Below are positions 2,660 to 5,365 of a stretch of 5,365 nucleotides of DNA, one piece after another. Below the pieces are notes generated by a model that saw nothing but the letters and a program-made list of their open reading frames with translations, had not been told where the DNA came from and searched no databases. Made by a program: the position numbers and the translations under genes. Numbering within the stretch: the stretch's first letter is position 1; each line of letters starts with the position of its first letter. Source of the DNA: a virus (lineage: Duplodnaviria; Heunggongvirae; Uroviricota; Caudoviricetes); IMG/VR virus record IMGVR_UViG_2778261058_000002, positions 1-5,365 of that record, one strand, 5' to 3'.

Positions 2660-3079
2660 AACATCGCTTCCTCTCTTCCGACTCCGCCAGCATCATTGCC
2701 ACAAAATCCGTATACGGCAGCGCCATCACATCTCCGGGAGACCACCCGAACCAGGCACCGGCACGCCGTATCGCTGTCAGGATGCTTTCTTCTTCCGCCG
2801 GACCGGCGGCAGCAAAAAAACATTAAACTGACGCTCCAGGGCCAGGTAATCACACGCTTCCATGTTCATCATGTCTGCCGCGTCCATCCCACACAGACCG
2901 GCAATCATATCCAGATCAGCCTCTGCTTCCGGTTTGTTACTCCGGCGATGCAACAGACGATCGCGGACAGTGGGCGCACGCATAGTGACGTGCGTGATCG
3001 TCTGTCCTGATGCGGTGACATACGGCACGGATAACACAATTTCCACGCTGCTGGCAGGAACACTGTTTTTTTCCGACAT
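2640..3079 (-). CDS. Tail assembly chaperone E+E' fusion made by programmed -1 ribosomal frameshift (E frame 3079..2814, E' frame 2813..2640); about 146 aa
   Basis: Slippery heptamer T_TTT_TTG at 2819..2813 (minus strand) sits in the E frame as GTT TTT TTG. The -1 frame is open from the slip site to a TAA at 2642..2640 (translated by hand: AAAGPAEEESILTAIRRAGAWFGWSPGDVMALPYTDFVAMMLAESEERKRCYGNGGR) and overlaps the tape measure start at 2659, as for P2 E/E'. Confidence 0.7.
2777..3079 (-). CDS. E: Tail assembly chaperone E (gpE-like), about 100 aa, unshifted product
   Basis: ORF ends at TGA 2779..2777 with C-terminus ...ERQFNVFLLPPVRRKKKAS. Track start ATG 3085 sits directly against the AGGAG (3090..3086) with no spacer; the ATG at 3079..3077 has a 6-nt spacer and is the preferred start (MSEKNSVPASS...). 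Position between tube and tape measure and the internal slippery site identify it. Confidence 0.8.
   Translation of the reverse strand: MSEKNSVPASSVEIVLSVPYVTASGQTITHVTMRAPTVRDRLLHRRSNKPEAEADLDMIAGLCGMDAADMMNMEACDYLALERQFNVFLLPPVRRKKKAS
2813..2819 (-). promoter_or_regulatory. Programmed -1 ribosomal frameshift (recoding) site, slippery heptamer T_TTT_TTG
   Basis: Plus strand 2813..2820 reads caaaaaaa, i.e. TTTTTTTG on the minus strand, phased in the E frame as G-TT|TTT|TTG. This is the canonical X_XXY_YYZ slip motif reported for tail chaperone pairs (lambda G/GT, P2 E/E'). Confidence 0.75.
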
Positions 3080-3091
3080 AAGCATCTCCTT

Positions 3092-3119
3092 TAAAAAGAA
3101 AAGGCGGCCTGAGCCGCCT
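3092..3119 (-). terminator. Rho-independent terminator-like hairpin between tube and E (minus-strand transcript)
   Basis: Perfect 7-bp GC-rich inverted repeat AGGCGGC (3102..3108) / GCCGCCT (3113..3119) with 4-nt loop, followed on the minus strand by TTTTCTTTTTAAA (3101..3090). Lies in the 59-nt gap between the tube stop (3139) and the E Shine-Dalgarno. Confidence 0.7.
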
Positions 3120-3657: not shown

Positions 3658-5129
3658 ACCGTCAGCTCCTCCAGCGCCAGTTTATTGTTAATCATCGCCC
3701 GCAGTGTCAGGCGCTCCAGTGGTGACTTCGGCCCAAAGTCATAATCGATATACAACTGCCCGGCGGCCAGGGTTTCTGCTGTGTTCAGTTCATCATTCAG
3801 CCAGGCACTGCCACCGTGGATCGCGCCCAGATTTTTAAGCTGACGCATATAGGCATTAATACTGCCAAGAATGTCGTCCGCCACATCACGATCCAGCGGA
3901 CGGTCAACATAAGGCAGCATGGCCTCCTGAATACTGTCCTCTATCACATCTGCAGTACGGCGTACCGGCTCAAAACGCCACTGACTGTGGGATGAACACA
4001 GACGGTTGCCCCAGTGTTTAAAACCGTCATGCCGAATAATGGTGGAGATGTTTTCCATGTTCAGCAGGTTTGCTGTGCAGTTCTGCTCCCCGAGAATAAA
4101 TGTGTCCACCTGCTCCAGACCGGTGATATTCATCACGTCCTGGTTTGATTTGGACCACCACCATCCCTTTTCGTAATCTATGCGGGCACGCAGCCCGGCA
4201 GCACGAGCCGAATACGGACGAAATACCGTTTGCCCGCTGTCATCCGTTACTGACACGCGCGGGCGCAGCAGCTCCACGCGCCCGCCAAAGGATGCGCGCC
4301 TCTGAACCACATCCTGCGGCGTTGCCATTGAGGGAGAGTCGATATAGGCCACGGCCCGCAGCTTCGCGGCATACGTTTCCAGCGCCTTTGCCACACCATC
4401 ATCCTCACTGTAACCCGTGGCAATGAGGATGCGCGGTTGATAGCCTGTCACGCCCTTACTTTCTGTCAGCGCCTCCATGGCCTGAATCACCGCCGCACGC
4501 TGTTCGGCCTCTTTCGCCTTTGTTTTGCTTTCCGCACGCACCACAATCACCAGCGCACCGGTCTGGTCAAAAATATCACGCAGGGCCGGATATAATGTCC
4601 CGGCTGAGCCCAGTTTCCCGGCCTGAGTAATGGCCCCTGCCACCACCACCGGTGTATTGACCGGGAACGCCTCATCCTCCCCGCCGGATAACGTCAGGCT
4701 GAACGGCGACACCACATTATTTTCAGCGCTTCCTGCATTCAGGGTACTGACAGCCGCCGTCACAGGCGAATCCCCCAGCGCATTCACCACTTCAGTCACA
4801 CGGTCCGCCGTGGCGTTAATCTGGCTGTGTTCGTCCGTCCCCAGCGTTATCGTCAGGGTTGTGCCTTTCAGCGATGCCGCTGTCTGCGCGTTTTGTTCTG
4901 TGGCAGCCACAGCAACAACCGAAATCTTATTACCGGCCCGACCTTCCTGTTTCGCCGTGAAATCCAGCGCCGTTCCCAGCAGCCAGGAGCCGGCTGTGCC
5001 GGAAGCGCACACACCACCAGAGGCGTCCGGCGCAGTCCCCACCAGGCCAATCACTGCCGTGGAGATGGTCTGCACGGCAACCGTGCCTGTCGTCAGTTCA
5101 ATGGTTTCAACACCATGTAATCCGGACAT
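3654..5129 (-). CDS. FI: Contractile tail sheath protein (FI-like), 491 aa, with an extra ~110-aa N-proximal insertion
   Basis: ORF 5129..3654, ATG preceded by GGGAG Shine-Dalgarno. Several blocks match the P2 FI sheath from memory: [32 protein letters not shown] vs [50 protein letters not shown] vs [34 protein letters not shown] vs [43 protein letters not shown] vs [27 protein letters not shown]. Confidence 0.9.
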   Translation of the reverse strand: [491 protein letters not shown]

Positions 5130-5141
5130 ACATTTCTCCCA

Positions 5142-5164
5142 TAAAAAAACCGCCCTCAGGCGGT
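5142..5164 (-). terminator. Rho-independent terminator-like hairpin between tail fiber assembly gene and sheath (minus-strand transcript)
   Basis: 6-bp GC stem ACCGCC (5149..5154) / GGCGGT (5159..5164) with 4-nt loop, followed on the minus strand by seven T (plus-strand A run 5143..5149). Only about 13 nt separate the T tract from the sheath ATG. Confidence 0.65.
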
Positions 5165-5183
5165 CAGATGATTAACTTCTTTT

Positions 5184-5365
5184 TCAGGTATTTTGTGGCT
5201 GCTCAGGCCAGCTAATATTGTTGTAAGTGGTCTTATCCGTAATAGCGCTGAAATCCATCGCCTGCAGCGATTTCGCGTAAATGCGGTACGCTTTCAGCTT
5301 CTCCCTGTCTTCGTCACTGATTAATCCCAGCAGCAGGTCTTTTTCCCATTCGCTGGTCATGATGC
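5184..5365 (-). CDS. tfa: Tail fiber assembly protein (Tfa / P2 gpG-like), partial: C-terminal ~60 aa only
   Basis: Minus-strand frame open from the window edge to TGA at 5186..5184. Translation ...MTSEWEKDLLLGLISDEDREKLKAYRIYAKSLQAMDFSAITDKTTYNNISWPEQPQNT* has the C-terminal W-P-E-x-P motif and preceding helical segment typical of enterobacterial tail fiber assembly proteins. Position just upstream of the sheath matches P2 order (H-G-FI). Confidence 0.7.
   Translation of the reverse strand, partial: IMTSEWEKDLLLGLISDEDREKLKAYRIYAKSLQAMDFSAITDKTTYNNISWPEQPQNT

Follow-up and report, generated by a model that had tools for sequence, protein, structure and literature searches.

How is the tail sheath gene of this phage expressed if a hairpin of the terminator type sits directly against its ribosome-binding site? 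The window, that is, the whole stretch of 5,365 nucleotides analysed here, carries all of its genes on the minus strand, as judged from the list of open reading frames and from Pfam matches. On that strand the 3' end of tfa is followed by the genes for sheath, tube, a gpE-like chaperone, tape measure, gpU and gpX. The gap between tfa and the sheath gene (5183..5130, 54 nt) extends from the tfa stop codon TGA at 5186..5184 to the sheath ATG at 5129 and consists, in minus-strand order, of an 18-nt spacer, the hairpin, seven T's, the dinucleotide AT, the SD sequence GGGAG, and six further nucleotides up to the ATG (Table 1). The initial annotation had described a 54-nt gap with a hairpin and a T7 tract ending 13 nt before the sheath ATG, and re-reading confirmed these coordinates. 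Its statement that the gap is almost filled was overstated, as the hairpin and the T-run together take up 23 of the 54 nt.

Table 1 Coordinates of the features discussed in the text, given as positions in the window.
Feature	Position	Strand	Basis and remarks
tfa, 3' part	5184..5365	-	cut by window end; match (E = 9e-12) reaching the final position of the Pfam Caudo_TAP profile
A-rich 18-nt spacer, tfa stop to hairpin	5166..5183	-	sequence
Terminator-type hairpin GACCGCC-TGAG-GGCGGTT	5148..5165	-	7 pairs, 5 of them G-C; tetraloop
T7 (U7) tract	5143..5149	-	extends the 3' stem arm, with which it shares its first two T's
Sheath SD GGGAG	5136..5140	-	sequence; 2 nt past the T tract, 6 nt ahead of the ATG
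Tail sheath gene, 491 aa	3654..5129	-	Pfam Phage_sheath_1 and Phage_sheath_1C
Tail tube gene, 172 aa	3139..3657	-	Pfam Phage_tube, E = 4e-24; start overlaps the sheath stop
Twin element after tube	3092..3119	-	hairpin AGGCGGC-TCAG-GCCGCCT (3119..3102), then TTTCTTTTT, then gpE SD AAGGAG
Tail assembly chaperone gene, gpE-like	2777..3085	-	Pfam Phage_TAC_7

The complete tfa gene encodes 180 aa and is found at 19640..20182 of a closely related prophage of Escherichia coli A36 (L001). The N-terminus of the sheath protein, MSGLHGVETIE, is conserved in relatives. With 18 nt in between, the stem should stay free of a ribosome that has reached the tfa stop. Further downstream, the program-called start of the gpE reading frame (ATG 3085) directly abuts a GGAG; translation probably begins at the second ATG (3079), positioned 7 nt past the GGAG and in agreement with the RefSeq start (L001 22287).

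Both sequence hallmarks of an intrinsic terminator were found ahead of the sheath gene, namely a GC-rich stem-loop on the transcribed strand (sought with a stem of 5-14 bp and a loop of 3-8) and a contiguous U tract. For the hairpin alone, the calculated free energy is -10.8 kcal/mol. When the surrounding 81 nt were folded, this small hairpin was the only structure to form (z-score 0.31), with neither a larger structure nor an alternative antiterminator fold. In a scan of the entire window against Rfam (E <= 1), nothing was found at the hairpin site; the sole hit, P9, was located elsewhere in the window and was sub-threshold (19.4 bits compared to a gathering score of 43, E = 0.99). A bidirectional terminator was also considered and ruled out, since the plus strand has no T-run after the stem. 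When strict criteria were applied (a 7-bp stem with five or more G-C pairs, and no fewer than 5 T's among the following 6 bases), the window yielded exactly two hits, 5165..5148 and 3119..3102, both on the coding strand and both intergenic. Dinucleotide shuffles produced 0.007 strict hits per strand, which corresponds to about 7e-5 expected in a given 54-nt gap. The terminator-type element in front of the sheath gene is thus far beyond chance.

In phage P2, the FI gene has its own late promoter, as the initial annotation had correctly stated; an activator site and a transcription start are annotated before FI. We searched for a P2-type activator dyad as TGT-N12-ACA. In agreement with the earlier reading, none was present in 5130..5365; elsewhere in the window the motif occurred at 3003, 4238 and 4894, which is at chance level (3 found compared to 1.24 expected). 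A sigma-70-like site was likewise absent from the coding strand in 5130..5365. The 13 nt between the T tract and the sheath ATG cannot accommodate a promoter, so that the claim of no promoter room between terminator and gene was borne out. One candidate promoter overlapping the hairpin (-35 CTGACC, -10 TTTTAT) was discarded: it is a poor match in which the A2 of the -10 hexamer is missing, transcripts started from it would lack the SD, and relatives do not conserve it. A tblastn search with P2 Ogr against the A36 prophage and the phages yong2, Chris1 and Valp1 gave only E values above 2, while the P2 control gave 4e-48. Both marks of a P2-type late promoter, a dyad some 55 bp ahead of a start site before the sheath gene and an Ogr/Delta-type zinc-finger activator, were therefore missing. 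The implied premise of a P2-like phage had to be given up, as the resemblance to P2 is confined to the tail module of an otherwise lambda-like phage; for this reason, the absence of P_F is expected and not surprising.

The window is 98.1% identical, over its full length and gap-free, to the A36 prophage, which is integrated at ssrA. The tail of this prophage is of the P2/R-pyocin type, and its terS/terL, portal, S49 protease, decoration, capsid and FI genes are of the lambda type; it also carries lysis genes and tRNAs. The entire array from holin to tail fibre is encoded on a single strand. An antiterminator gene some 21 kb upstream of sheath codes for a protein of the Phage_antitermQ family (PF06530, E = 3e-43; phrog_79). 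A promoter-like sequence, TTGATT-16-TAAAAT, lies 13 nt past the Q stop and is followed by several terminators. The second-closest prophage, that of E. coli 52F4 (97.6% identical to the window), carries a different Q-like allele (phrog_753) at the same position. A Q-like protein was also present in all three complete hairpin-bearing phages: yong2 has a lambda-type Q (PF06323, E = 6e-48, phrog_304), Chris1 a Q-like protein of phrog_753, and Valp1, a more distant telomere phage, a Q of phrog_304/PF06323. The A36 prophage thus displays the features of a lambdoid late operon, with Q upstream, a promoter-like site and terminators after Q, and co-oriented late genes. This evidence for Q comes from prophages that are 98% identical to the window, with the Q gene located outside the window, and lambdoid regulatory modules are mosaic. 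In a relative from E. coli STEC316 that is rearranged or fused with a Mu-like element, no Q was found within the range examined. A megablast search of the phage collection with the window as query matched fragments of tfa only (phiP27 and others). The proposal that late-gene logic differs from that of P2 is supported, the closest prophages being lambdoid with Q and without an Ogr homologue; the suggested check of flanking sequence for a late activator or antiterminator gene, carried out on these prophages, returned Q-family antiterminators.

Several other features of these prophages were observed. The interval from the promoter-like site after Q to a terminator holds a 409-aa GIY-YIG/T5orf172 reading frame (L002 28047..29358; L001 1004..1027), which looks like an insertion between pR' and tR'. 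The terminator past this reading frame reads AAACCCGCC-GCCT-GGCGGGTTTTTTG, and its stem resembles one located 68 nt past the Q gene of yong2. The A36 prophage harbors, in the interval from the lysis genes to terS, a gene for a K88-type fimbrial subunit (L001 5438..6220; PF02432, E = 1.9e-46); this gene is flanked by strong hairpins of its own and probably represents a moron. A second tail-fibre gene (phage_tail_N, PF08400) and a DUF4376 gene follow gpD (L001 26160..29311), and the A36 prophage therefore carries two fibre sets. In STEC316 (L172 1..12228), the prophage adjoins a Mu-like tail module and lysis genes follow a DUF4376 gene, an arrangement that looks like tandem or recombined prophages.

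Scans of IMG/VR and GTDB with the sheath protein returned about 160 loci. Where sheath identity was at least 90%, the hairpin was present upstream of the sheath ATG in 29 out of 29 loci; within this group the stem and the T-run were unchanged and the loop varied freely (TGAG, TTAAG, TTTAAG, GTTAAG). At 55-70% sheath identity and with V or tfa upstream, it was present in all 63 loci. The stems of relatives at about 60% identity differ yet still pair (ACCTGC/GCAGGT, ACCCGC/GCGGGT, ACTCGC/GCGAGT). In an alignment of 20 distinct sequences of the hairpin region, pairing was retained in 100% of cells, and three of the seven pairs showed compensatory double changes. None of 500 shuffles reached the observed covariation score, and sliding the partners reduced pairing to 32-66%. 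The six T columns and the GGAG of the SD were invariant in the same 20 sequences. Across loci, the hairpin took 42 distinct sequences and ended 15-34 nt (median 21) before the sheath ATG. The element extends to relatives in Vibrio, Photobacterium and Shewanella (44-48% sheath identity), and most relatives at the Vibrionaceae level have it; it is missing from nearly all relatives of other phyla, at 41% sheath identity or below. Taken together, the pre-sheath element is conserved, with compensatory changes in its stem, in about 100 related loci of Enterobacterales and Vibrionaceae.

An enterobacterial lineage with 47% sheath identity, represented by phage 569R10 (L084 2483..4528) and a prophage of E. 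whittamii (L107), lacks both this hairpin and the one after the tube gene. In this lineage the tube-gpE distance is only 12 nt and the upstream gene overlaps the sheath start, which accounts for the absence of the pre-sheath hairpin. The element is therefore selected but dispensable. The 569R10 record is that of a truncated prophage without the regulatory region.

The neighborhood of the hairpin differs between relatives. In yong2 and Chris1 the tail genes are arranged as V-sheath-tube-E-T-U-X-D-W-J-I-H-tfa, whereas window-type prophages such as that of E. coli A36 have the order V-W-J-I-H-tfa-sheath-tube-E-T-U-X-D. The W-J-I-H-tfa block is thus permuted: it is found after gpD in yong2 (L081 8487..19136) and Chris1 (L082 17749..28467) and between V and sheath in the A36 prophage (L001 15926..26134), the latter placement matching the P2 order. 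In both orders the hairpin lies directly ahead of the sheath ribosome-binding site. Relatives with V upstream have no spacer, and the stem shares its first two bases with the stop codon of V (TGA or TAA). In the window-type order, the gap after V was examined and contained no hairpin. The sequence upstream of the hairpin is unrelated between tfa-type and V-type relatives. The hairpin is therefore linked to the sheath gene and not to tfa, being retained with either V or tfa upstream.

The twin element after the tube gene is shared by the clade that carries the pre-sheath hairpin. Its stem is highly variable, 110 loci having yielded 59 distinct forms, and in most relatives its hairpin is located 17-28 nt past the tube stop. 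At both sites the distance from T-run to SD is short and conserved. In the structural regions of the A36 prophage, yong2 and Chris1, gaps with hairpins are those before and/or after the capsid gene, before sheath and after tube; the other intergenic gaps of these regions have none, save for a weaker one before W in yong2. Specifically, the A36 prophage has terminator-like hairpins flanking its major capsid gene (L001 12780..12804 and 13861..13879), and yong2 and Chris1 have one hairpin after a fused protease-capsid gene. The holin gene of the A36 prophage is preceded by a hairpin-T6-SD unit (L001 3470..3511; GGGCCGCTGGTGGCTC TTTTTTATTTACAGGAG...ATG). In P2, the FII-E gap (L083 4074..4131) contains a G+C-rich hairpin (CCGGTCAGCC..GGCTGGCCGG) after the tube gene that is not followed by a T-run, and hence the post-tube position may predate the terminator design. 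Many terminator-like hairpins besides the pre-sheath one lie on the coding strand of the late region, and counts taken over the two strands jointly exceeded expectation (32 compared to 15.8 expected, and 26 compared to 14.7 expected). Such an excess only makes sense with a processively antiterminated polymerase.

These findings suggest that the hairpin and U7 tract are probably an intrinsic (Rho-independent) terminator within a Q-antiterminated lambdoid late operon. In general, a polymerase modified by Q ignores downstream intrinsic terminators. Late transcription would start at a promoter just downstream of Q, about 21 kb upstream of the sheath gene, where Q would load onto RNA polymerase and render it resistant to termination. 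The modified polymerase would then pass the pre-sheath hairpin and about ten others, so that the lysis, head, baseplate, fibre, sheath, tube and remaining tail genes would be transcribed as one unit. An unmodified polymerase, arising from leaky, moron-derived or spurious transcription in the lysogen, would stop at the T tract, and sheath and tube would consequently be made only when Q is present. The high output of sheath protein would be achieved in translation, by means of the strong GGGAG SD within a U-rich leader free of structure, rather than through a dedicated promoter. Of the routes proposed initially for sheath expression, read-through or antitermination is thus the one favored by the genomic context, with Q, co-oriented late genes and no Ogr. 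Switching on of lambdoid late operons by Q antitermination is established, and without Q the pR' transcripts terminate just past the promoter (PMC2629481; PMC7547250). In the literature searched we found no direct transcript data for such phages or for internal late-operon terminators, and no description of this conserved hairpin pair.

The position of the hairpin corresponds to the G-FI boundary of P2, which is the site of a terminator and of P_F. The hairpin could end a baseplate/fibre operon, and an activator-dependent promoter for the sheath operon could be concealed in the last part of tfa or overlap with the hairpin; a weak sigma-70-like site does occur about 1.2 kb upstream in the fibre gene (L001 18982..19009), at chance level. 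This arrangement is very improbable in view of the lack of a dyad and of a coding-strand sigma-70-like site in 5130..5365, the missing Ogr homologue and the short distance from T tract to ATG, and the unrelated sequences upstream of the hairpin in tfa-type and V-type relatives leave no possibility of a conserved upstream promoter. The tfa region is mosaic, with only its 5' part matching phiP27 (99%), which would be in line with a terminator carried along neutrally with a recombined tail-fibre/tfa module, or with a chance inverted repeat. We find such a leftover scarcely credible given the covariation, the invariant T-run, the spread over Enterobacterales and Vibrionaceae, the linkage to sheath instead of tfa and the low chance expectation. 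Both a hidden P2-type promoter and a neutral remnant are thus contradicted by the data. Translating ribosomes are known to suppress terminators close to stop codons. Read-through might depend on translation instead of Q, in that a ribosome completing the upstream gene, positioned on or close to the 5' arm, keeps the hairpin from folding while the polymerase is at the U tract; translated transcripts would then extend into the sheath gene and untranslated ones would terminate. The overlap of the V stop with the stem makes ribosome-mediated suppression plausible for V-type relatives. In the window, however, the stop lies 18 nt upstream of the stem and thus beyond the ribosome footprint, the post-tube twin is similarly remote from its stop in most relatives, and with Q in all complete genomes examined the mechanism is not needed. 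We consider it implausible for the window and, on the whole, very improbable.

A further possibility is that hairpin, U tract and SD act mainly after transcription, by delimiting a stable sheath-tube segment within a long read-through mRNA. The upstream hairpin would then serve as a 5' stem-loop against RNase E after processing and the downstream one as a barrier to 3' exonucleases, while the U-rich stretch would enhance ribosome (S1) binding, which together would set a high stoichiometry of sheath and tube. Such a role is compatible with that of a terminator, and it takes up the protective 5' stem-loop that the initial annotation had named as one option, for which there is some circumstantial support. 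It would fit the bracketing of capsid and sheath-tube by hairpin gaps in the A36 prophage, yong2 and Chris1, although this pattern rests on three genomes. It would also fit that the hairpin remains with sheath whether V or tfa precedes it, V itself having no hairpin after it in the window-type order, as well as the same design ahead of the holin gene and the P2 hairpin without T-run after FII. The short, conserved spacing from T-run to SD at both sites points in the same direction but may merely reflect genome compaction. On the other hand, the T-run is invariant although a hairpin serving stability could do without a U tract, and no processing site can be inferred from the sequence. We therefore regard a mainly post-transcriptional function as unlikely. 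The same doubt applies to its fullest form, a cistron-boundary cassette of Q-regulated contractile-tail phages that brackets sheath-tube (and capsid), travels with these genes under permutation and sets their stoichiometry post-transcriptionally, with termination being only a fail-safe in the lysogen; in that case the units, nearly identical in design, might also offer microhomology for module shuffling. Nevertheless, a terminator acting purely as an insulator accounts neither for the fixed place of the hairpin beside the ribosome-binding site of sheath nor for the bracketing of precisely the most abundant proteins. The hairpin at this site, its post-tube twin and the capsid-flanking hairpins together suggest a second, post-transcriptional role, and a contribution to mRNA stability or translation in addition to termination is plausible.

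If the terminator is indeed read through with the help of Q, a P2-like tail module does not imply P2-like regulation. A widespread group of enterobacterial and vibrio prophages would have its tail genes on a lambda-type Q switch, and annotators would do well to look for Q before Ogr sites. Heterologous expression of such tail clusters without Q, for example in tailocin engineering, should be expected to stop before sheath and after tube unless the hairpins are removed. The covarying hairpin pair around sheath and tube would provide a natural system to measure Q-dependent read-through, and would also allow a test of whether terminators in antiterminated operons double as mRNA stability or translation elements. 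Current understanding is not overturned. The pre-sheath hairpin is no puzzle, because a P2-like tail is probably paired with lambda-type late control by a Q antiterminator. The residual interest lies in the covarying, gene-linked nature of the pair.

Compared to known systems, the locus most resembles the lambdoid late operons of lambda, 82, 21 and the Stx phages (pR'-tR'-lysis-head-tail). In common are the Q gene directly upstream of a promoter-like site and terminators, and a long, co-oriented and nearly gap-free late array with terminators to be read through (PMC2629481, PMC7547250). Unlike in lambda, the tail module is contractile and P2/R-pyocin-like and not that of a siphovirus, and strong putative internal terminators abut the ribosome-binding sites of holin, sheath and gpE. 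With the P2 G-FI boundary it shares the tail order (tfa/G, sheath/FI, tube/FII, E, T, U, D) and a Rho-independent terminator after the fibre assembly gene, and the sheath protein is 35% identical to P2 gpFI. In P2, however, the terminator after G is followed by about 2 kb with fun(Z) on the opposite strand, and both an activator site and a transcription start (24 nt ahead of FI) are annotated in addition to an ogr gene, in contrast to the 54-nt gap without dyad and without Ogr found here. The closest sequenced phages, yong2 (Hafnia), Chris1 (Citrobacter) and Valp1 (Vibrio), with sheath identities of 64%, 61% and 47%, are lambda-like or telomere phages with P2-type tails. All have the hairpin and T-run before sheath, the post-tube twin and a Q-like antiterminator, but they differ in stem sequences and Q families, and yong2 and Chris1 additionally in their permuted order, with V upstream of sheath and its stop overlapping the stem. 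Intercistronic and 5' stabilizing stem-loops, such as the 5' hairpin of ompA or those that confer differing stabilities on parts of polycistronic mRNAs, have no obligatory U tract. The hairpins described here may be likened to them by position only, in that they flank cistrons whose products are needed in the largest amounts. Judged by its sequence and setting, the pre-sheath element would work like the internal terminators of any Q-antiterminated late operon, a kind that is well known.
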